Of a stretch of DNA of 64,000 nucleotides, positions 70-40,206 are shown piece after piece. The stretch covers positions 13,892 through 77,891 of the forward strand of contig JBBRAU010000002.1 in assembly GCA_038206475.1 (NCBI GenBank), given 5' to 3'. The DNA is from Patescibacteria group bacterium. GTDB lineage: Bacteria; Patescibacteriota; UBA1384; JBBRAU01. The notes under the pieces were generated by a model. It was not told the DNA's origin and made no database searches. It was given only the letters and a program-made list of their open reading frames with translations. A program made the translations under genes and the position numbers. Numbering within the stretch: the stretch's first letter is position 1; each line of letters starts with the position of its first letter.

Positions 70-150
70 TACTGCTACTATTACGCCTGAGTTGAGGGTT
101 GTTGTGTATATTACTCACATCTGGCAAGCGGAGCTTGCCGCCTCCGGCGG

Positions 151-180
151 TAAGAACCTCTCGCTACGCTCGAGAACCTT
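151..180 (+). repeat. Copy of recurring intergenic motif (half A: TAAGAACCTCTCGCTACGCTCGAGAACCTT) upstream of tRNA-Ala
   Basis: 26/30 identity to the sequence just 3' of the tuf stop (read on minus strand) and strong similarity to the one after the rpsN stop. Confidence 0.5.
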
Positions 181-237
181 GCAGACATGCTTCATCTCTC
201 AGTCCAGCCCCCATACTTCGCATGGTGTCTGAACTGA

Positions 238-313: not shown

Positions 314-395
314 TTGGCTAGTCATCTGACAAGATGGCTGGCCAATGGTTTATTAAAGGCTCGAACGACCAGCGAGCTTGCGAGCTGGAGTTGGG

Positions 396-414
396 TCACG
401 AGCGAAGCGAGTGG
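396..414 (+). repeat. Copy of recurring motif half B (TCACGAGCGAAGCGAGTGG)
   Basis: Matches TCACGAG-N-GTAGCGAGTG present in the tuf/rpsJ and rpsN/rpsH spacers. Confidence 0.35.
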
Positions 415-441
415 GGATACTCGGCGAACGCAGTGAGCCAA

Positions 442-1949: not shown

Positions 1950-2022
1950 TATGGGACAATTGGCGAAGTTGGCAACGTTCTCAAATGAAATGAGAGGTTA
2001 CTGCCAACTGAGCCACGAACCC
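1950..2022 (-). pseudogene. Degenerate tRNA-like element (tRNA 5' half plus anticodon arm with UCA anticodon; no T-arm or acceptor 3' strand)
   Basis: Reverse complement GGGTTCGTGGCTCAGTTGGCAG..TCTCA-TTTCATT-TGAGA resembles the 5' half of the adjacent tRNA-Ala; position 37 is a pyrimidine and no T-arm is detectable. Confidence 0.3.
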
Positions 2023-12219: not shown

Positions 12220-13158
12220 TTATTTTAGTGGGTTTACCTTGGCGCGGATAGCCGCAGTGAGTGCCGAGACAGTATCTGCAGCGGCTTGTTTTGTATTGCC
12301 ACGAGCGTGAAGCACGACGGTGATGAGCGTCCGACCGTCAACTTCCTTGGTCATGGCGGCCAAGTTGAACCCGGCTTCATTAATATAGCCGGTTTTGCCG
12401 CCGATAAAGCCTGGCAGTGGAGATTTACTAAACAATAGGTTGGTTGAAACGAGCTTATAGCTCTTTTGGCCGCCCTGGTTATGCACCGTCAATCGCTCGG
12501 TATTCATCAGTTTTTGGACCGTCGCATTGCGGGCAACAATTTCGAGCAGCCGAGCAGTATCTTGCGCTGATCCGACAGTTGTCGGGTCAAGCCCGGCTGG
12601 ATCAGCGTAGTGCAGGCTAGTTAAGCCAAGAATCATGGCATTGCGGTTCATGGCCGCGATGAAGGCTGCGCGCTTATTTTGACCGGCTGGATTTGCGGCA
12701 GTTTGCCCAGCAGCGAGCGTCTCGGCAGCGTCGTTGGCCGACGGGATGAGCACTCCGGCCAGCAAATCTTTGACCATCAGCTGGTCGCCTGACGCGAGGC
12801 CCATTTTAGCCTCTGGCAGTGCGGTGACGGCATCGGGAACTACGAGTACATCATCCAACCGGTAGGTTTTCAGCGTCGTCAAAACCGTCATCAATTTAGT
12901 CAGCGAGGCTAGCGGTAGCGGTTGAGTGGCGTTGTTGTTGGCTAGAACAGCTCGCGCCCGGGTGTCAAAGACGAACTCAGCGTCGGCTTGAGACAACAAT
13001 GCCGGGTCCGCTGCAGCCGGATAGGGCCTGGCGGTTTCGGATTGGCCCATTGCCACCGCTTGGCGCGCCGGCAGGGCTGCCGGCAAGGTTTGAACAACCA
13101 TGCTGGTCGCCTGTGAATGCAGCCCGAGCGCAAACAGCCAAGGTGCGAGCCCAATCAC
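12220..13158 (-). CDS. D-alanyl-D-alanine carboxypeptidase (S11 family)
   Basis: SLTK (SxxK), SAND (SxN) and KTG motifs; N-terminal signal-like segment. Confidence 0.8.
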   Translation of the reverse strand: MIGLAPWLFALGLHSQATSMVVQTLPAALPARQAVAMGQSETARPYPAAADPALLSQADAEFVFDTRARAVLANNNATQPLPLASLTKLMTVLTTLKTYRLDDVLVVPDAVTALPEAKMGLASGDQLMVKDLLAGVLIPSANDAAETLAAGQTAANPAGQNKRAAFIAAMNRNAMILGLTSLHYADPAGLDPTTVGSAQDTARLLEIVARNATVQKLMNTERLTVHNQGGQKSYKLVSTNLLFSKSPLPGFIGGKTGYINEAGFNLAAMTKEVDGRTLITVVLHARGNTKQAAADTVSALTAAIRAKVNPLK

Positions 13159-17685: not shown

Positions 17686-18693
17686 TTAGAACTGGCTCAA
17701 GAAGCGGATGTCATTTTCGACAAGCAGACGAATATCCGGAATATCCGTCGACAGCATGAGCAAGCGATCAAAACCCATGCCAAAGGCATAGCCTACATGC
17801 TCGGCCGGATCAAGCTGCATCTCACGCAAAACGTTTGGATGGACCATGCCGGCCCCGCCAGATTCGAGCCAGCCAGTGTGGGCACAAACGCGGCATCCCT
17901 TTCCTTGGCAGAGCAAGCAGGTAATATCAACCTCAACGCTCGGCTCAGTAAATGGGAAGAAAGAGGGGCGAAAGCGTGCTTTGGCACCGCGGCCAATCAA
18001 TTGTTCGGCAAACTGGTTCAAGGTCCAGAGTAGCTGGCGCAAATTAGCGCCCGGCTCAATAACTAACGCTTCAAACTGGAAGAAAGAGGATAGGTGGCGG
18101 GCATCGGTCGCTTCGTTGCGAAAAACGCGGCCTGGGTACATTACCCGTAGTGGCGGCCGCCGATTCTCAAGTAAACGAATTTGCATATCGGTTACCTGCG
18201 TCCGCATGACTAACTCGGTTTCACCTGTCTCGTTCCGCTCGGCCGATGTGAGGTAAAAGGTGTCCTGAATGTCGCGCGCCGGGTGATCCCGCGGCACGTT
18301 CAGGCGATCAAAATTATATTCGACCGTTTCAATTTCTGGGCCACTGGCGTATTCATAGCCAAGCGATTGAAAGATACTGATGAGCCGGCGCATGAACTGC
18401 GTTTCGGGGTGCAGATGTCCGGTCATAGTCGGCCAGACTACCGATTGCTCTGACCAGCCGGCCTCAAGCGGAACTTCAGCTGTTTGCTCAGCAAACAGTG
18501 CTTCTAGCTCTGCCCGCAGCGCGTTGGCCTCAGCACCGGCTTGGCGACGTGCCGCCTCAGGCAGGTTCTTCAGCGACCGCAGCAACTCTGTCAGTTTACC
18601 GCTGCGCCCTAAGTATTGCTGCCTAAGGGAAATTTTATCGCTGCCAGCTTCAAGCGCTGCCAGCGCCTCCGAGTGGAGTTCTCCAGCCGTCAT
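17686..18693 (-). CDS. pheS: Phenylalanyl-tRNA synthetase alpha subunit
   Basis: Class II motifs (FRNE..., FFPFTEPS, GMGFDRL). Confidence 0.9.
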   Translation of the reverse strand: MTAGELHSEALAALEAGSDKISLRQQYLGRSGKLTELLRSLKNLPEAARRQAGAEANALRAELEALFAEQTAEVPLEAGWSEQSVVWPTMTGHLHPETQFMRRLISIFQSLGYEYASGPEIETVEYNFDRLNVPRDHPARDIQDTFYLTSAERNETGETELVMRTQVTDMQIRLLENRRPPLRVMYPGRVFRNEATDARHLSSFFQFEALVIEPGANLRQLLWTLNQFAEQLIGRGAKARFRPSFFPFTEPSVEVDITCLLCQGKGCRVCAHTGWLESGGAGMVHPNVLREMQLDPAEHVGYAFGMGFDRLLMLSTDIPDIRLLVENDIRFLSQF

Positions 18694-25478: not shown

Positions 25479-25624
25479 AGCCCGAGCCTAGCTTATAGAC
25501 AGCAAAATTGCCACCTCTCCTTGCTTTTTGTCGCTTATATGCTATGCAAAGTGATTCACACCTGGGCAATCATGCCCATTTTTCTCTCAAGTAGAGCGAG
25601 AGAGAAGTTTGCCGTCAGCAAAAC

Positions 25625-26935
25625 TTAGTCCAGTTCGTAAGTAGAGGTAACTATCTGAGCTCGGACGGCCAGCATCGTTTCAATAACAACGGAGACAACA
25701 ATTAATAAGCCGGTGCCGCCGAGCGAGAAGGTGTTGTTGCCGAGCAGACGCTGAACCACCGTCGGCAAAATAGCCACGATACCGAGGAAAACGGCGCCAA
25801 ACAGCGTCAGGCGCATCAGCACCAAACTAATGTAGCGCTCAGTCTCACCGCCCGGCCGGACGCCCGGAATATAGCCGGACTGCTTTTGCAGGTTCTCAGC
25901 GATATTTTTCGGTTGGAAGATGACAAAGGTGTAGAAGAAGGTGAAAACGACCACCAAAATGAAGTATAGGAGCGGGTAGTAGGTGGCGGTCGGCCGCGTG
26001 AAGTTAATGACCGCCTGAGCGCCATCCCGGAGCCAAGCTGAGCGGGCATGCAGGAAGAACTGGGCCATGAAGCTCGGTGTAATCAACAATGAAATGGCAA
26101 AGATAATTGGAATGACGCCGGCCGAGTTGACCCGCAGCGGCAAATTCGACGGAACCTGCGATTGCACTCCTTGGCGCACACCGCGGGCATAGACGACCGG
26201 AATGTTACGGATGGCTTGGGTGACGGCTACAACTAGGGCCAAAATGACCACCGCGACAATGGCCACAATGCCGTACTGAATAAGCATGGCAGTGTCCATT
26301 TGCGACAAATCAAGTCCAGACAGCGAAACGGAAATACCGGCCAGCGCCAATGAACGGCCAATTAAACTCGGTAGGCCAGATAGAATGCCAAGGATAATAA
26401 TTAACGAGATACCATTACCGATGCCTCGCTCAGAGATAACCTCTCCGAGCCACATCAAGAGCACCGTACCAGCGGCGGTAGCGGTTAGCATCAGAAACAG
26501 CGATGGTGCCGACAATGTCTGCAACAAACCTTGGCTTTTGAGCAATGCAACGGTGCCGTAACCCTGCAAATAAGCTAGTGGTACAGCGAGATAGCGCGTG
26601 TATTGCTGAATTTTCTGCTGACCGTACTGGCCCTCTTTTTGTAACGCTTCTAATGACGGCACGACGTAGGCAAGCAACTGAAAAACAATCGAGGCGGTAA
26701 TATAAGGGCCGACACCAAGCATAGCCAGTGACAGCCGGCTAATTGAGCCACCCGAAAACAGCTCGAGCAAACCGAGGAATTGGTTGCCAGACAATAATTG
26801 GCCTAGCTCGGCCTTAGGTACACCAGGCGCCGGAATGTGCGCCAGTGCCCGGGCGGCCAAAAGCAACCCGAAGGTCGTCAGCACTCGTCCCCTTACGTCA
26901 CTAAGTGCCCAGAGCGAACGCAAACGGGCAAACAT
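25625..26935 (-). CDS. secY: Preprotein translocase subunit SecY
   Basis: 436 aa, about ten hydrophobic helices, conserved position after rplO. Confidence 0.95.
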   Translation of the reverse strand: MFARLRSLWALSDVRGRVLTTFGLLLAARALAHIPAPGVPKAELGQLLSGNQFLGLLELFSGGSISRLSLAMLGVGPYITASIVFQLLAYVVPSLEALQKEGQYGQQKIQQYTRYLAVPLAYLQGYGTVALLKSQGLLQTLSAPSLFLMLTATAAGTVLLMWLGEVISERGIGNGISLIIILGILSGLPSLIGRSLALAGISVSLSGLDLSQMDTAMLIQYGIVAIVAVVILALVVAVTQAIRNIPVVYARGVRQGVQSQVPSNLPLRVNSAGVIPIIFAISLLITPSFMAQFFLHARSAWLRDGAQAVINFTRPTATYYPLLYFILVVVFTFFYTFVIFQPKNIAENLQKQSGYIPGVRPGGETERYISLVLMRLTLFGAVFLGIVAILPTVVQRLLGNNTFSLGGTGLLIVVSVVIETMLAVRAQIVTSTYELD

Positions 26936-26936
26936 A

Positions 26937-27383
26937 CTAGGCTGCTTTAGTTGAAGTTTGGGTAGTCAAAATGCCCAAGTGAGCGGCGACGCTCTTGGTC
27001 GTGGCAATGCCAGACAGGCTGAAGCGTTTGCTCATGTTCGGCGTGGCGACAATTTTGACAGTACCAGGGCGCGTGCGGAGCAGGCCAACCTGTTTTAAGC
27101 GCTGCGGCGTAATAACTGCTCCCTCGTCAAAGCTCGCTTCAAGCGCCGAAAAACGGACGGTGGCCGATTTTGGCGTCAGTGAGCGGAAACCGTTCAGTTT
27201 TGGCAGGCGTTGCACCAGCGGTGTTTGCCCACCTTCAAAGCGCCGCGGGATGTTGTGGCCCGTGCGCGAGTTTTGACCCTTCGTACCGCGGCCAGCGGTT
27301 TTACCCTGGCCAGCGGCAATACCGCGCCCGACACGGCGGCGGCTCTGCTTCGGCATTGAGACGCGAATATCATGCAGTTGCAT
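26937..27383 (-). CDS. rplO: 50S ribosomal protein L15
   Basis: MQLHDIR...GRGIAAGQGKTAGRGTKGQ; start at internal ATG 27383. Confidence 0.85.
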   Translation of the reverse strand: MQLHDIRVSMPKQSRRRVGRGIAAGQGKTAGRGTKGQNSRTGHNIPRRFEGGQTPLVQRLPKLNGFRSLTPKSATVRFSALEASFDEGAVITPQRLKQVGLLRTRPGTVKIVATPNMSKRFSLSGIATTKSVAAHLGILTTQTSTKAA

Positions 27384-28116
27384 TCGTCTCCTCTGTAGCC
27401 AACACCTCGGCCTTTTTAGTCCGTGGCTTGACGGTTTTCTTGACCGGCGTCGCTTCAACTAGTGCGACTTCCTCAACCATTTCGGCTGTTTTGTGGCTGT
27501 CGGCTTGAACGCGGCGCGGACGGTCTGTTTTGAAAGAGGATAGCGCCAAGAGCGTCGCTTTGGTCATGTTAATTTTATTTGAGCTGCCCAAACTCTTGGA
27601 CAGTACGTTTTTGATTCCCGCCAACTCAATGACCGCCCGAACGGCGCCGCCAGCGACAATCGAAGTGCCAGGAGAGGCAGGCTTGAGCAATAAACGCACG
27701 CCAGAGTAACGGACAGTGCTCTCATGCGGGATCGTGTCATTGATAATAGTGACGGTTTGCATATGGCGTTCGGCCTGCGTTTTGGCTTTTTGTACGGCAC
27801 CCGCCACATCGCCGGATTTAGCCACACCCATACCGACCTTGCCAGCACGGTTGCCCATAACCACCAGCGCTCGGAAGCGGATACGGCGACCACCTTTAAC
27901 GACCCGGGAGACACGGTCAACTGAGACTACACGGTCGTCATACTCACTGGTTGAGCGGCTCCGTTGACCGTCGGTCCGGCCGCCGCCTTGGCGACCGCGG
28001 CGCTGACCGTCTGATCCGCCAGCACGTCCGCCCCCCATTGACCGCGAATAATTCGCTGGAGAGGTGGTTGGCCGTGTTTGAGCTGCGCTCGAGGTGGTTG
28101 GTTGTTCTTCAGGCAT
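27370..28116 (-). CDS. rpsE: 30S ribosomal protein S5 (N- and C-terminal extensions)
   Basis: VVKGGRRIRFRALVVMGNRAGKVGMGVAK core; no rpmD (L30) between rpsE and rplO. Confidence 0.9.
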   Translation of the reverse strand: MPEEQPTTSSAAQTRPTTSPANYSRSMGGGRAGGSDGQRRGRQGGGRTDGQRSRSTSEYDDRVVSVDRVSRVVKGGRRIRFRALVVMGNRAGKVGMGVAKSGDVAGAVQKAKTQAERHMQTVTIINDTIPHESTVRYSGVRLLLKPASPGTSIVAGGAVRAVIELAGIKNVLSKSLGSSNKINMTKATLLALSSFKTDRPRRVQADSHKTAEMVEEVALVEATPVKKTVKPRTKKAEVLATEETNATA

Positions 28117-28123
28117 ATCTCTC

Positions 28124-28540
28124 CTAATTCAGTAACTTAGCCGTACGCAGCGCCTCAGCCAACGCCTTGACCCGACCGTGGTAAGCATAACCGGCCCGGT
28201 CAAATACCACGCTCGACACACCGGCTGCTTTGAGCGAGGCAGCCAGCGCTTGGCCAACCTGCTCAGCTTGAGCAGTTTTAGCATTGCTGTCAGCAGAGCT
28301 TGCGACCTGACGGTCTGAAACAGAGCTTTTGGCTGCGCCATAAGCAGAGCTTTTGGCTGCGCCATAGTCTGAAGCGGCGGCAATTGTTTTCATGGCTGTG
28401 TCATCAATAGCTTGGGCGGCAATATGCTTGCCGGAACGGAAAACCGCTACGCGAGGACACTCGGCCGAACCAGCCAAGCGAGTCCGAATCCGCGCTGCGC
28501 GCGTAGCTCGTTTCTGTTTTCGTGGATAGATGGAAATCAT
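28124..28540 (-). CDS. rplR: 50S ribosomal protein L18 (contains in-frame 24-nt tandem duplication)
   Basis: L18 N-terminal RKQKRATRAARIR and C-terminal FDRAGYAYHGRVKALAEALR. Confidence 0.85.
   Translation of the reverse strand: MISIYPRKQKRATRAARIRTRLAGSAECPRVAVFRSGKHIAAQAIDDTAMKTIAAASDYGAAKSSAYGAAKSSVSDRQVASSADSNAKTAQAEQVGQALAASLKAAGVSSVVFDRAGYAYHGRVKALAEALRTAKLLN
28321..28366. repeat. 24-nt in-frame tandem duplication inside rplR
   Basis: CAGAGCTTTTGGCTGCGCCATA twice, encoding YGAAKSSA / YGAAKSSV. Confidence 0.7.
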
Positions 28541-29114: not shown

Positions 29115-29504
29115 TTACGCAACCAGGCAAATAACTTCGCCGCCGAGCTTCTCACGCCGAGCCTCACGGTCGGTCAAAAAGCCTTTAGGTGTTGAGACAA
29201 CGGCAATACCATAGCCGGACAGCGGACGCATCAGGTCGCGGTAACCGCGATAAACACGCTGACCTGGCGTCGAGACACGACGCAGCAACCGGAAAGGTTG
29301 CGGACGATTATCGGCAAAACGAACCCGAATCGTATCTTGCGGCGTCGCCTCTTCTTTCGTCAAGCCCGCCACATAGCCTTCACGCTGCAGCAGCTGTAGC
29401 AGTGCCATTGACTGGTTGGTGTGAGGCACCACAAATTCGGTCCGTCCAGCACCTTGGGCGTTCTTCAGACGGACAACGAGATCAGATAGGGTGTCGTTTG
29501 TCAT
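29115..29504 (-). CDS. rpsH: 30S ribosomal protein S8
   Basis: MTNDTLSDLVVRLKNAQ...; AAGGA SD. Confidence 0.9.
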   Translation of the reverse strand: MTNDTLSDLVVRLKNAQGAGRTEFVVPHTNQSMALLQLLQREGYVAGLTKEEATPQDTIRVRFADNRPQPFRLLRRVSTPGQRVYRGYRDLMRPLSGYGIAVVSTPKGFLTDREARREKLGGEVICLVA

Positions 29505-29523
29505 GGTATTCCTTAATTATTTA

Positions 29524-29574
29524 TCACGAGTGTAGCGAGTGAAGAGTCTCTGGAGCGTAGCGACATGGTACTTA
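29524..29574 (-). repeat. Recurring bipartite intergenic motif (copy between rpsN stop and rpsH start)
   Basis: Minus-sense TAAGTACCATGTCGCTACGCTCCAGAGACTCTTCACTCGCTACACTCGTGA; about 82% identical over ~50 nt to the tuf/rpsJ copy. Confidence 0.6.
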
Positions 29575-29763
29575 CCAAGAGGCTTTGCGGACACCCGGCA
29601 ACATGCCGGCTGAAGCAAATTCGCGAAAATGGATGCGGCAAACGCCAAATTTACGCATGTACCCGTGCGGACGACCGCACTTTGGCACTAAGCAGCGATT
29701 TTTCTGGCGCACGCTAAACTTGGGTTTCCTTTGACTTTTAACAATATGAGCAACGGTCGCCAT
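29572..29763 (-). CDS. rpsN: 30S ribosomal protein S14 (Zn-binding type Z)
   Basis: 61-aa CxxC...CxxC form ending ...[11 protein letters not shown]. Confidence 0.9.
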
Positions 29764-32021: not shown

Positions 32022-32052
32022 TGCTTATCTTTCCAATATATTCAGTTAATGC

Positions 32053-32100
32053 TTTTCACTCGCTTCGCCTGTTTATCGACAGACAGACTCGTGATGAACA
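32053..32100. repeat. Partial, inverted and interrupted copy of motif half B in the rpsC-rplP spacer
   Basis: Plus-strand TTTTCACTCGCT ...(27 nt)... CTCGTGAT. Confidence 0.3.
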
Positions 32101-32168
32101 TGAGAATAACCTTTGGTCTGTTTTGATCTTGTTTACTTTACTTGATTTTTGACTTTTCTTCAATGAGC

Positions 32169-36225: not shown

Positions 36226-36422
36226 GTGGTCTCCGGTTTCGGTTGCTCTCGGGTCTTCATCTTCAACCAATATTTGGTTGAAATGCAACTCATGCCTGCG
36301 CACGAGAAGTCAAGAACCGCACTCTTGCGGTTCCGTCCGTCTAGCTCAGCTGCCAAACGCTAAATAAGCGAGAGGCTCAGGCGCCTGGGCAGACACCATC
36401 GGCCTTGCTATCTCTACAGCTG

Positions 36423-36451
36423 ACCTTACCGAAAATATAGTCACACGTCAA
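36423..36451 (-). promoter_or_regulatory. Candidate sigma70-like promoter for the rplC operon
   Basis: Minus strand TTGACG - 17 nt - TAAGGT, about 190 nt upstream of the rplC start. Confidence 0.3.
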
Positions 36452-36525
36452 CTATCCTGCCATCACCGACCCGTCCGCTATTGATAATTATTTCGTCCCC
36501 GCTCTTGAACAAGGAGGCGTCGTCC

Positions 36526-36666
36526 ATGGCTGATCGAGTATGCATTAATGTTGGGAAGGGATACGCTCTTGAGCCAAACCAACTAACAGAGTACCGTGGC
36601 AAGAAAGCAGGACTTCCAACAGCAGAGCCGCTGAGACTCGCTGTGCTACTCTCTATTAATCAATAG
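36526..36666 (+). CDS. Small ORF (46 aa) antisense to the r-protein operon, unknown function
   Basis: AAGGAGG SD 8 nt before ATG 36526; followed by two hairpins; CTA/AGA/GGA codons atypical of neighbours. Confidence 0.3.
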   Translation: MADRVCINVGKGYALEPNQLTEYRGKKAGLPTAEPLRLAVLLSINQ

Positions 36667-36720
36667 AGCTGCCTCAAAGAGGAGATGCTGGCGCATCTCA
36701 TCACTCTGCCTCGTCCGACT

Positions 36721-36755
36721 AAAAGAGCCCCGACCACATGGCCGGGGCTCTTTTT
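36721..36755. terminator. Hairpin terminator between rpsJ and the antisense small ORF
   Basis: 8-bp stem GAGCCCCG/CGGGGCTC, T5 run on plus strand, U4 on minus. Confidence 0.6.
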
Positions 36756-36776
36756 ATGTCCTATTGAGAAGAAGAA

Positions 36777-37106: not shown

Positions 37107-37152
37107 GTGGTCTCCTTGGTACAAATCTCGTTGCTGATATTTGCTTTGACTG

Positions 37153-37202
37153 TCACGAACGTAGTGAGTGAAAAGGTTCTGGCGCGTAGCGACAGGTTCT
37201 TA
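37153..37202 (-). repeat. Recurring bipartite intergenic motif (copy between tuf stop and rpsJ start)
   Basis: Minus-sense TAAGAACCTGTCGCTACGCGCCAGAACCTTTTCACTCACTACGTTCGTGA; the TAA is the tuf stop codon. Confidence 0.6.
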
Positions 37203-38586: not shown

Positions 38587-38605
38587 ATGAGGATGCTTGC
38601 CGGCC

Positions 38606-38902
38606 TCAGGGGCCGGCGGTGTCCCACGCGGACTCGGGCAGGAGCTCACTCTCCCTGCGGGCACTGTATATCCCCAGCAGGGCCAGATCCTTCTCGTTTT
38701 CCTCGCCGCGGGCCCCCCTGTACAGGGGCAGGAACTCCTTGCACCAGTCCTGCACGTCCGCATCCTCGGACGTGCAGTCACCGGCGATGGCCAGCCTTTC
38801 GCCATCGTCTTGCTGGTACCTTTCTGTGCCGTCGGTGATGTCGAAGAAGCAGAACATCACCACGAGCACCACGCAGGCGAACACTTCAACGATTTTTTTC
38901 AT
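38606..38902 (-). CDS. Small secreted or membrane-anchored acidic Cys-containing protein, unknown function
   Basis: GGAGG SD 7 nt before ATG; N-terminal hydrophobic segment MKKIVEVFACVVLVVMFCFF; own terminator; AGG/CTG/GTG/GAC codon usage. Confidence 0.5.
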   Translation of the reverse strand: MKKIVEVFACVVLVVMFCFFDITDGTERYQQDDGERLAIAGDCTSEDADVQDWCKEFLPLYRGARGEENEKDLALLGIYSARRESELLPESAWDTAGP

Positions 38903-38982
38903 TGCAGGCCTCCTTGGCCGCGAAATAAAAGGAACAGAGAGTGACTATTTAATTTATGCATTATTTAGTATACTTTGTCAAT

Positions 38983-39783
38983 ATGAAGTATCTCTGGCCG
39001 GCCGCTATCACCCTATGCCTACTGAGCCTATTTTTGTGGCTCCACACGTGGCAACGACCGGCAAACAGCATTGCAGCCTCACCGCAAGCCTCCAGCACTG
39101 CCTATTCGGCTCCACCGAACCCGCTGGCCAGCCTTTCAGCCTCCCCCGCTCTAGTAGACAGTCACACGCCTACGCGTATACCTAAGACGCGTCCAGCCAG
39201 CGTCAATATCAGCGTGCCATTTACTGTCCAGGCGCCAACTGGCCGTTGGGATGCCTTTCATGAGGAAACCTGTGAAGAAGCGGCGGCGCTGATGGCTGCC
39301 TATTGGCGCGACGCCAAATTGCACCGCAGCCTGGGTGACCCAGCCAAAATCCCCAACGATACGACCGAGACCGCTCTGCGCGCAATTGCCGATTGGGAGA
39401 CGCAAACGTTCGGCTATTGGCAAGATACGACGGCCACCGAAACAGCCGAAATTATAACCGATTATTTTCACCTGCAGGCGTCAGTAGAAACCATTGTCAG
39501 CACTGACACAATTGAACAGGCGCTGGCCGACGGCCATTTGGTACTGCTGCCGACCGCCGGCCGTCTACTAAATAGCCCCTACTACACGGCGCCGGGGCCG
39601 GCTTACCACTTTTTGCTCATCCGCGGTTATACCAACACCGACTTCATTACCAACGACGCCGGCACGAAGTACGGCGCAGGCTACCAATTTCGGAAAAAAA
39701 CCGTTCTGCAGGCCATTCACGACTGGACAGGAGACGCGGAAACCATTACAACTGGTCGTAGCGTCATGATTGTCGTGCAGTAG
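38983..39783 (+). CDS. Peptidase C39-like (YvpB-like) domain protein, N-terminal signal anchor
   Basis: Hydrophobic N-terminus, Ser/Pro/Ala linker, VPFTVQAPTGRWDAFHEETCEEAAALMAAYW resembling C39_2 catalytic Cys region; start ambiguous (38956 or 38983). Confidence 0.55.
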   Translation: MKYLWPAAITLCLLSLFLWLHTWQRPANSIAASPQASSTAYSAPPNPLASLSASPALVDSHTPTRIPKTRPASVNISVPFTVQAPTGRWDAFHEETCEEAAALMAAYWRDAKLHRSLGDPAKIPNDTTETALRAIADWETQTFGYWQDTTATETAEIITDYFHLQASVETIVSTDTIEQALADGHLVLLPTAGRLLNSPYYTAPGPAYHFLLIRGYTNTDFITNDAGTKYGAGYQFRKKTVLQAIHDWTGDAETITTGRSVMIVVQ

Positions 39784-39804
39784 CTTTGGAGCTCGAAAAG
39801 GGGA

Positions 39805-40206
39805 ATGATGATTGATCTTCAACATATTGATGCGCGTGCTGAACCGCTAACAGAAGAAAAAGTGCAGGCCATCCTGCTTGGATGCCGGATACGGACAGGA
39901 AAAGCAGCCAGAAAACTGTCGGCCGAATGGTATGAACTGAAATATTACCCAAAGTGGAAGGAGGGCTGGCTGCAGCTCAAAATACTGCGTGAAACCCCCT
40001 ATCCCGAGCGAACAGCCATGCTCTATCACTTCCTCGTCACCTTGCACCTTCACCACTGCTTATCCCACACGCACCAACGTCTTGTCGGGCCGATCACGCT
40101 CTGCGACGCCATGGATGAACAAGTGGCGCTGCTCTGCCAAAATGTCAGCCGTAACCCACCGTGGCGGGAGTGGTGGCTGTTGCAGCATATTCCTGGATAC
40201 CGCTAA
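39805..40206 (+). CDS. Hypothetical protein (His/Cys-rich segment LHLHHCLSHTH)
   Basis: 133-aa ORF with upstream AAAGGGG; ends at a hairpin terminator. Confidence 0.45.
   Translation: MMIDLQHIDARAEPLTEEKVQAILLGCRIRTGKAARKLSAEWYELKYYPKWKEGWLQLKILRETPYPERTAMLYHFLVTLHLHHCLSHTHQRLVGPITLCDAMDEQVALLCQNVSRNPPWREWWLLQHIPGYR

Follow-up and report, generated by a model that had tools for sequence, protein, structure and literature searches.

MIRU and the pneumococcal BOX elements are intercistronic units of 40-100 nt that form tandem arrays of variable copy number and are mostly co-oriented with the genes; MIRU abut or overlap stop codons, and BOX is built of the modules A-B-C. To our knowledge, no transposase is known for either of them. 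A short sequence of another kind, the S8 operator of the Escherichia coli spc operon, is placed at the start of rplE and mimics helix 21 of the 16S rRNA. The bacteria that make up the candidate phyla radiation (CPR, Patescibacteria) have tiny, tightly packed genomes in which the ribosomal protein genes are normally a few bases apart. In this work we analyzed a stretch of 64,000 nucleotides (the window) from contig JBBRAU010000002.1 of a Patescibacteria group bacterium, in which 67 nt separate rpsN (ribosomal protein S14) from rpsH (S8). This spacer is a diverged, decayed copy of a dispersed repeat formed by two hairpins, which crosses the lineages of CPR/Patescibacteria and is absent from Rfam and from the literature searched. 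Judged by its protein sequences, the source organism is a deep-branching CPR bacterium; the EF-Tu of the window shares 82-86% identity with proteins that carry the names Patescibacteria, CPR2 and Berkelbacteria, and its S8 has no relative above 64% identity.

The element in the rpsN-rpsH spacer

The rpsN gene, which encodes a 63-aa zinc-type S14, corresponds to the open reading frame (ORF) 29572-29763 of the minus strand and ends in a TAA at 29574-29572; rpsH starts at 29504 on the same strand, and the full 67-nt spacer between both genes is GTACCATGTCGCTACGCTCCAGAGACTCTTCACTCGCTACACTCGTGATAAATAATTAAGGAATACC. An earlier note on this DNA, made from the sequence alone, had considered a spacer of this length unusual and had described in it the second full copy of a bipartite motif of the tuf/rpsJ spacer, with the rpsN stop codon as part of the motif; all of this is borne out by the results given below. 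When foreign copies were read, the two half-sites of that motif were seen to be the loops of two hairpins, HP1 and HP2. HP1 has the form TAAG-AAC-C-[T N ... N' A]-G-AAC-CTTG, in which the outer TAAG/CTTG stem is followed by an internal loop, the symmetric AAC/AAC, and then by an inner stem whose sequence is free. HP2 follows directly after HP1 with a stem of 4-5 bp (TTTC/GAAA, TTTTT/AAAAA, TCAC/GTGA, TTCC/GGAA and others), and the 11-nt loop TCGCT(A/T)CGCTC is common to both hairpins, the two loops being approximately 25 nt apart. In the spacer, the element is contained in the minus-strand string TAAGTACCATGTCGCTACGCTCCAGAGACTCTTCACTCGCTACACTCGTGA (29574..29524), which occurs exactly only once in the window, and shows the following features:

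29524..29574, minus strand: copy A, the full bipartite element (HP1 and HP2), which occupies most of the rpsN-rpsH spacer
29542..29574, minus strand: HP1 of copy A with decayed flanks, TAAGTACCa...GAGACTCTT, compared with the canonical TAAGAACC...GAACCTTG
29553..29563, minus strand: first 11-nt loop of copy A, TCGCTACGCTC, read from the sequence
29524..29542, minus strand: HP2 of copy A, with TCAC/GTGA as the stem around the loop TCGCTACACTC, read from the sequence
29572..29574, minus strand: TAA that ends rpsN and, at the same time, opens the element, from the ORF call
29510..29514, minus strand: Shine-Dalgarno sequence AAGGA of rpsH, intact 3' of the insertion, read from the sequence

The assignment of copy A to the repeat family was made with R1, a covariance model built from 15 foreign copies, with no sequence of the window, and run with the filters off. 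R1 matches copy A at 29519-29574 of the minus strand with 33.6 bits (E 1.4e-5). A repeat finder aligned 29524-29565 of copy A with 37153-37194 of the tuf/rpsJ copy at 83% identity over 42 nt, and the decamer CGCTACRCTC is present four times in the window, where 0.28 occurrences are expected (0/100 shuffles reach four). Copy A has the two loops (TCGCTACGCTC and TCGCTACACTC) and the HP2 stem TCAC/GTGA of the repeat defined by R1, is non-coding, and has the TAA in first place; it also retains TAAG and the inner TG/CA pairs of HP1. In the cmsearch alignment, AAC of HP1 has been changed to TAC, an extra A has been inserted, GAACCTT has become GAGACTCTT, and non-standard pairs are marked in the outer stem; given this damage in the flanks of HP1, copy A is therefore the most decayed of the three significant copies of the window. 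The RNA fold of copy A is no better than that of shuffled sequences (z-scores +0.38 and +0.14), hence the qualification of the spacer as structured in the earlier note is weak for this copy. That full copies start at a stop codon agrees with our results, but the distance of 20-40 nt from their end to the next start codon does not, since this value is 19 nt from copy A to the rpsH ATG and 28 or 47 nt from the tuf copy to rpsJ, according to the start codon chosen. Exact-protein look-ups for S14 and S8 gave one identical 12-kb contig only, from which no population variation is obtained. A collection of genome contigs scanned with the S8 protein yielded no relatives, and hence does not include the genome of the window.

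The S14-S8 junction was compared in six relatives (L-numbers are the labels of the fetched loci). Four of them have short spacers, of 5 nt in L068 (EF-Tu 86% identical), 7 nt in L002 (S8 64%), 9 nt in L066 (EF-Tu 86%) and 18 nt in L010 (S8 56%). The spacer of L067 (EF-Tu 86%; 18140-18184) has 45 nt and carries two unrelated small hairpins (GGACGCTAAGCGTCC and CCCCGCTTAGCGGGG), and that of L064 (EF-Tu 88%; 12968-13097) has 130 nt and forms one long imperfect hairpin, as is likewise the case in L065. The tight coupling of S14 and S8 that had been taken as normal is thus found in four relatives and not in the two with hairpin-bearing spacers. R1 does not match any of the six loci (0/6), nor does it find a copy elsewhere in the ribosomal-protein clusters of these relatives. 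Copy A is a lineage-specific insertion, because the element is missing from the junctions of the six relatives, and four of their spacers have only 5-18 nt. The alignment of the spacers shows a clean gap of about 50 nt; once the 48-nt core and one TAA are removed, the window spacer reads TAA-ATAATTAAGGAATACC-ATG, close to TAG-ACGAGTAAGGAAATATA-ATG of L010, where a TAAGGAA lies at the same distance from the rpsH ATG as the Shine-Dalgarno sequence of the window. Judged by the sequences of these spacers, the S14-S8 junction seems to be prone to acquiring hairpins of several kinds. The tuf-rpsJ spacer has 94 nt in the window and 10-20 nt in relatives. The 102-nt tuf-rpsJ spacer of L067 was tried as a homologue of copies A and B and the similarity was not significant, given that 64/500 and 11/500 shuffles score equally. 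The check that had been proposed for the spacer, its conservation across relatives, gives a divided answer: the spacer is not conserved at the locus, yet as a dispersed element the motif shows strong conservation, with covariation in its stems.

Copies, covariation and dispersal of the family

A profile search of the window with a model of the copies found exactly three significant sites in the 64 kb, at the rpsN/rpsH copy, at tuf/rpsJ (37172-37202) and upstream of tRNA-Ala(CGC) (151-181). Besides copy A, the copies and candidate copies are:

37148..37202, minus strand: copy B, canonical HP1 and HP2, starting at the tuf stop codon, in the tuf-rpsJ spacer (R1 53.9 bits, E 2e-10)
151..205, plus strand: copy C, perfect canonical HP1 (151-181) and degenerate HP2 (R1 50.2 bits)
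25580..25627, minus strand: possible degenerate copy from the secY stop codon, TAAG-hairpin-CTTC followed by TCTC-TCGCTCTACTT-GAGA (R1 12.8 bits, E 1.1; not significant alone)
395..439, minus strand: degenerate copy E, between tRNA-Ala(CGC) and a partial duplicate of this tRNA (nhmmer E 1.1, weak)
1973..2000, minus strand: HP1-like remnant TAACC-TCTCATTTCATTTGAGA-ACGTTG upstream of tRNA-Ala(GGC), seen by eye only, with three flank mismatches and no R1 match

Copies B and C have the complete HP1, with the outer stem, the AAC/AAC loop and the inner stem closed by C-G and T-A; copy C is located 56 nt upstream of tRNA-Ala(CGC). In copy E, R1 recognizes CACTCGCTTCGCTCGTGA at 396-413 (11.1 bits, E 2.9), a match that is weak and not significant alone. 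The element TAA is the stop codon at tuf, at rpsN and at the weak secY copy.

The surroundings of the copies near the tRNA genes present features of their own. Directly before copy C there are two back-to-back perfect hairpins, GGCAAGC-GGA-GCTTGCC and CCGCC-TCC-GGCGG (123-150, plus strand), and the latter resembles the inner hairpin TCGCCTCCGGCGA found inside an HP1 module of L028. The tRNA-Ala(CGC) gene (238-313) is followed by an 18-bp terminator-like hairpin (310-349), copy E and the partial tRNA copy (442-464), which consists of the first 8 nt of the tRNA joined to its last 15 nt (GGGCCTGT joined to CTCCTCAGGTCCACC). In L022/L062 and in L060, the element similarly has an intact tRNA gene on one side and, on the other, a direct repeat of the 3' part of this tRNA; this layout of tRNA, element and tRNA repeat is typical of integration into tRNA genes, but the "insert" has only 60-135 nt. 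The sequence GGGTTCGTGGCTCAGTTGGCAG (2001-2022, minus strand), which resembles the 5' acceptor and D-arm part of a tRNA without the remainder, is found just upstream of the HP1-like remnant and of tRNA-Ala(GGC) (1870-1945). An origin of the element from a tRNA was rejected, given that ARAGORN and the Rfam tRNA model see nothing in it.

The structure of the repeat was deduced from the variation among copies. The 11-mer loop TCGCTACGCTC occurs 73 times in the 447 kb of fetched loci, where 0.2 occurrences are expected. Between the constant flanks AAGAACC and GAACCTT we found 37 distinct inserts, nearly all of them hairpins (for example TCAGGATTACCTGA, TGGCTACGCCA, TCGCTTTCAGCGA and CCCGGTAAGACCGGG, the commonest being TTTCGCTACGCTCAA), with a mean contiguous stem of 3.6 bp versus 0.6 bp in shuffled inserts. 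In an alignment of 30 distinct HP1 sequences, five of the six inner pairs change on both sides, and 44 compensatory cells are observed versus 16 in shuffles (a number attained by 0/500 shuffles); the terminal T and G were set from the consensus in this alignment, in which the outermost pair is uninformative. In the model-derived alignment of real copies the outermost HP1 pair is U-G in 64/72. For HP2, all four stem pairs covary among 72 distinct copies, with 96% of the cells paired versus 82% in shuffles, in an alignment fitted to the covariance model, which favours pairing (a control with slid partners drops to 53-59%). The compensatory cells of the 72-copy alignment are 93 versus 22 in shuffles, and 0/500 reach this value. 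Those canonical HP1 variants whose inner hairpin is perfect give a good fold (-9 kcal/mol, z -4); the commonest HP1 variant and copies A and B are indistinguishable from shuffles (z-scores of A and B from -1.0 to +0.7). From their sequences, AAGAACCU and AGAACCUU can pair around the AAC/AAC mismatch to give a two-fold symmetric duplex, and CTTG can also pair with the TAAG located after HP2. Mismatches of the G-T and A-C types are equally frequent in the stems, both being rare, and are therefore uninformative as to the selected strand, or as to RNA versus DNA. The 29-31 nt of HP1 are almost the same in CPR classes that differ greatly in GC content.

A 23-base exact pattern, which corresponds to the first half of all three window copies, was scanned on public metagenome contigs and on the species-representative genomes of GTDB. 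It matches 45 metagenome contigs, several of them with 2-5 matches spaced 39, 50, 51 or 65 nt, and eight GTDB genomes, five titled Patescibacteria (two Daviesbacteria, one Nealsonbacteria, one Saccharibacteria and one "Patescibacteria group") and three titled "uncultured Gammaproteobacteria"; no copy was detected in viral contigs with this pattern, or in phage records. R1 finds 95 copies in 481 kb of CPR loci. The foreign copies are flanked by housekeeping gene pairs that are mutually unrelated (more than 40 loci), among them ftsQ/femAB, rbfA/rplM, PBP5, proS/recO, pilM, rpoC/ftsK, a type II secretion system (T2SS) F protein, aspS, argS, alaS, hpf, rplX and rplL, and several copies are placed beside tRNA genes. 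A block of about 95 nt that includes the element is nearly invariant in L017, L019 and L047; orthologous conservation of this block was rejected, because the flanking genes are unrelated, and it therefore represents the same element at different loci and not an orthologous site. In searches against Rfam 15, the whole window gave two tRNAs only, the rpsN-rpsH spacer gave nothing at E<=10, the tuf/rpsJ region gave a chance match of 15 bits only, and 19 foreign loci with canonical copies gave nothing at the element. A literature search by sequence string and by topic did not find a description of the family.

Both orientations occur; between co-directional genes, about two thirds of the copies are sense and one third antisense, and in the array-rich contigs the element is mostly co-oriented with the genes. 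In 10 of 41 independent copies, the TAA of the element terminates in frame an ORF of 60 aa or more, versus 4.4% for any TAA (p 9e-6), and in L033 and L042 the element is located between the stop codon and a canonical terminator. The tandem arrays, with periods of 39, 50, 51 and 65 nt, are head-to-tail and mix several types of module, although their units are often identical. The dense mixed arrays of L035 (4055-4362), L028 (9597-9845), L054 (10222-10560), L029 (4809-4970) and L039 (20-267) have 5-9 modules and include a minimal module, TAAGC-ATA-GCTTG, that lacks the AAC loops, as well as purine-rich linkers of 8-10 nt such as ATGGGAGA and ACGGGAGAG; the periods of 39 and 51 nt are multiples of three and those of 50 and 65 nt are not. 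At the rpoC-ftsK junction of one population, a 50-nt unit is present in two copies in one assembly and in at least three in two assemblies from related samples, a difference for which assembly collapse is possible; the unit is at L021 3121-3226, L037 11230-11385 and L041 48-126, and the variation may be of the variable-number tandem repeat type or an assembly artefact. When the ORFs near the copies were clustered all-against-all, the only recurrent families were housekeeping proteins and one uncharacterised protein of about 200 aa. The genes for this protein (about 150-206 aa, no Pfam/NCBIfam match) are at L035 3299-3919 (minus), L028 8841-9461 (minus), L024 8048-8590 (plus) and L048 2895-3335 (minus), on contigs of three organisms, 0.3-2.7 kb from the element and near tRNA genes, too few for an association.

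Other particularities of the ribosomal-protein cluster of the window were noted. The rpsJ-rplC gap has 473 nt (36304-36776; 85-255 nt in relatives) and contains a GC-rich hairpin with a T-run right after rpsJ (36719-36755) and the promoter-like sequence TTGACG-17-TAAGGT (36423-36451), because of which rpsJ may be transcriptionally separate from the rest of the S10 operon. An A-rich spacer of 147 nt separates rpsC (S3) from rplP (L16) (32022-32168); the corresponding spacer of L002, the relative with 64% S8 identity, has 198 nt, and in other relatives these genes abut or overlap. Three ORFs of the opposite strand (115, 275 and 133 aa; 38597-40206, plus) are placed between fusA and tuf, which are usually adjacent, and the relatives likewise have extra genes or long gaps in this interval. 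As usual in CPR, there is no L30 gene between rpsE and rplO (26937-28540). S5 has 248 aa (156-173 aa in relatives) with an N-terminal extension of about 80 aa rich in G and R, and L18 has 138 aa (111-116 aa in relatives) with an internal duplication (AAKSSAYGAAKSS).

Interpretation of the repeat and of copy A

The best explanation for these results, in which we place moderate confidence, is that the element is a non-coding, dispersed two-hairpin repeat of the REP/BOX/MIRU type that was inserted at the rpsN stop codon, and that copy A is a passenger and not an S8 sensor. Of this, the results show that copy A belongs to the family and is absent from the junction in relatives, that the family is scattered over unrelated loci and amplified in tandem, that its stems covary, and that the HP1 flanks of copy A have decayed. 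The insertion would have occurred at or directly after the rpsN TAA in this lineage, likewise at tuf and probably at secY, and would have moved the S8 ribosome-binding site about 50 nt downstream. The family would spread as DNA, either in the manner of a non-autonomous element or through duplication and recombination, and would prefer TAA for its 5' boundary; insertions at stop codons would survive because the element supplies its own TAA. Copy A would then travel as a passenger in the spc-operon mRNA and, at most, could serve as a generic hairpin cassette between the cistrons, by which the translation of S8 is uncoupled from the termination of S14; S8 translation would be in this case reliant on its own Shine-Dalgarno sequence. 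The landing of a repeat on stop codons within operons, its amplification, and the near invariance of a core of about 30 nt across classes are unexpected given how tight the CPR genomes are. If the repeat is nothing more than selfish DNA, it offers a useful marker for genome dynamics and for horizontal exchange in a group regarded as poor in repeats, and it is also a caution against taking such spacers for ribosomal-protein leaders.

Several observations weigh against this explanation. The near identity of HP1 exceeds what is expected for a selfish, decaying repeat, which suggests that some partner or function is conserved. Of the flanking genes checked with Pfam, about half are translation-related, which might not be due to chance, and the lean of about 2:1 in favor of the orientation of the flanking genes, with arrays mostly matching it, fits an RNA role as well. 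Pfam and NCBIfam searches of the neighbours did not reveal a transposase, integrase, RAYT or Nop-domain gene beside any copy in about 480 kb of loci and in the window, and the source genome was examined within these 64 kb only. The element does not have terminal inverted repeats, since its left end TAAGAACCTTTCGC and the reverse complement of its right end CTTATTTCGAGC mismatch; a TAA is present 3' of HP2 in many copies, not in all (it is absent in B and C), so a target duplication of TAA is ambiguous. Some copies are enclosed by an extra inverted repeat of 8-12 bp, which may be a pre-existing hairpin, and among the loci compared we found no empty-site pair close enough to prove precise insertion. 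The GC skew is slightly negative across the whole window, and therefore copies A and B are probably on leading-strand sequence; this does not discriminate between the models.

As we see it, the main alternative is a conserved RNA or single-stranded DNA (ssDNA) signal with a partner factor; the extreme conservation of the HP1 sequence and the plasmid relatives described below are the reasons to retain it. Tentatively, a conserved trans-acting CPR factor that acts on RNA or ssDNA could recognize the HP1 duplex AAGAACCU/AGAACCUU that clamps a free hairpin, along with the TCGCUACGCUC loops. If this were true, the arrays would be functional scaffolds rather than junk, and the main translation-gene cluster would have real punctuation signals in the copies located at the stop codons of tuf, rpsN and secY; such a partner protein would point to an undescribed lineage-wide process at the RNA or ssDNA level. 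The earlier note had proposed a general factor on account of the tuf and tRNA copies; these do argue against an S8-specific role, but the "factor" may be a protein or merely the machinery that spreads the repeat.

In its RNA version, which we consider possible although unlikely, the element would be a cis-acting module read by a general CPR factor, either an RNase or an RNA-binding protein, and would serve as a processing, stability or termination-reinitiation signal; the symmetric duplex with its AAC/AAC loop would act between cistrons and next to tRNAs, and copy A would set the S14:S8 ratio. This version accounts for the constant flanks and the covarying inner stem, for the frequent start of the element at a stop codon and its end 20-55 nt before the next start codon, for the order of stop codon, element and canonical terminator in L033 and L042, for arrays mostly in gene orientation, for the many neighbours that encode ribosomal proteins, aminoacyl-tRNA synthetases and tRNAs, and for the near-perfect sequence identity across CPR classes. 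However, at least 6-8 loci are antisense to both flanking genes, the mismatches favor neither strand, the conserved flanks are gone from copy A, the folds are only marginally stable, and the identical tandem units and non-orthologous sites look like amplification and not like regulation.

The ssDNA version, which we judge improbable, takes the element as a hairpin signal shared with plasmids, either a priming site of the sso/ssi type or a site for an HUH enzyme such as those of the IS200/IS605 ends, the chromosomal copies being relics or targets. Two same-strand hairpins with near-identical loops recall the left and right ends of IS200/IS605, and the left boundary is constantly TAA, of which no clear duplication is seen. 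In 118 Acinetobacter plasmids there is a match to positions 10-54 of the canonical element with 87-90% identity (best E 4e-6), in a region next to Rep_3 iterons in which four short-stem hairpins with TCGCTNCGCTC loops (R1 20-21 bits) are placed between the iterons and the mob genes. In the A. baumannii plasmid p1E-011922 (L069 296-446), and also in L070 and L071, the TCGCTNCGCTC hairpins lie between four 22-bp Rep_3 iterons and the mob genes, and no description of them was found in the literature searched on Acinetobacter plasmid origins. HP1/HP2 may share ancestry with these origin-proximal hairpins, a link that, if a partner protein exists, would extend the process beyond CPR. In addition, the loop complement GAGCGTAGCGA contains TAGCGA, which agrees with CS-6 (TAGCGA/T), the consensus in the loops of ssoA-type single-strand origins (PMC10378824). 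Nevertheless, no Y1/HUH gene was found near any copy, the plasmid copies lack the TAAGAACC flank, no viral contig or phage record has the element, and the CS-6 match covers six bases only, on the strand that opposes the orientation of most genes. Both loops have TAGCGA in their complement, in hairpins of only 4-8 bp and in a chromosomal context, whereas an ssoA-type origin has a long hairpin with an RSB site and belongs to a rolling-circle plasmid; we regard this resemblance as a lead, not as a result.

It is very doubtful that the spacer contains an internal promoter, or that two direct repeats separated by 25 bp make it a transcription-factor site; a sigma-70-like sequence, TTCACT-16-AATAAT, does overlap HP2 of copy A, and copies are found upstream of rpsJ and of a tRNA, where promoters are expected, but one match compares with 0.4 expected by chance, the -10-like hexamer is absent from copy B, the predicted start would eliminate the rpsH Shine-Dalgarno sequence, ordinary promoters of the TTGACA/TATAAT type are present elsewhere in the genome, and many copies are at gene 3' ends or antisense. 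An S8 operator, with the spacer as a mimic of the S8 site of 16S rRNA that lets free S8 repress its own translation, was a hypothesis of the earlier note that we find scarcely credible: the spacer is directly upstream of rpsH, and S8 is an established autoregulator in E. coli, but the element is missing at the junction in 6/6 relatives, is shared by tuf/rpsJ, tRNA-Ala and more than 40 unrelated loci in both orientations, has no match to a ribosomal-leader family of Rfam at E<=10 and has no stable fold. Equally hard to credit are guide-RNA or antitoxin arrays (TIGR-Tas stem-loops or type III toxin-antitoxin repeats) of which the window copies would be solitary relics; tandem units of 39-65 nt do occur in CPR, where TIGR arrays have been reported, but their flanks are constant, the sole variable part is self-complementary and hence there are no spacers, no Nop-domain or ToxN-like gene is beside any array, and the units are often identical.

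Comparison with known systems

The TIGR-Tas arrays, reported from CPR, carry two variable spacers of 8-12 nt between box C/D motifs and an adjacent tas (Nop-domain) gene (PMC12045711). The CPR repeat resembles them in its tandem stem-loop units in CPR genomes and differs in that its single-stranded parts are constant and a tas gene is lacking, so it does not have the defining features of TIGR.

With the S8 operator of E. coli, the rpsN-rpsH element shares only the proximity to rpsH; the CPR element is neither locus-specific nor conserved at the S14-S8 junction. The hairpins of the Acinetobacter Rep_3/MOBQ plasmids differ from it in that they are devoid of the TAAGAACC flank and of the AAC/AAC loop, and have a fixed position between iterons and mob genes.

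As for mobile elements, the terminal inverted repeats that, with a target-site duplication, characterize miniature inverted-repeat elements (MITEs) of DDE transposases are not present, and a duplication is at most ambiguous. With the ends of IS200/IS605 and their miniature derivatives (PATEs) the CPR repeat shares two similar same-strand subterminal hairpins, a fixed left boundary, which in the CPR repeat is always TAA, and no obvious target duplication. In contrast to them, the CPR element has only about 50 nt with nothing between its ends, no TnpA (Y1) or TnpB gene was seen nearby, and cleavage and guide sequences of the IS200/IS605 type are not identifiable in it.

The REP/BIME sequences of enterobacteria and pseudomonads, which are mobilised by RAYT, are likewise short, hairpin-forming, non-coding repeats of intergenic or intercistronic location, often clustered, transcribed with operons and frequently placed just after stop codons. 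REPs are species-specific, reach hundreds of copies, carry a 5' GTAG and form clusters of alternating orientation, whereas the CPR repeat is near-identical across CPR classes, low-copy in many genomes, arranged in head-to-tail arrays and has constant flanks around a free hairpin. The 5' GT[AG]G that in REPs accompanies an imperfect palindrome is absent, GTAG being present only in the loop complement, and a RAYT (Y1 transposase) gene was not found next to the copies in the approximately 480 kb of loci or in the window. With MIRU and BOX the CPR repeat shares the intercistronic arrays and the co-orientation with genes, as well as the overlap with stop codons (MIRU) and the modular build (BOX). 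It has no sequence similarity to either of them, and each of these is confined to one genus, whereas the CPR repeat extends over a superphylum and its core is defined by two hairpins whose stems covary. Taken by its behaviour, that is, intercistronic, clustered and adjacent to stop codons, the CPR repeat appears to be most like REP/BIME, BOX and MIRU.

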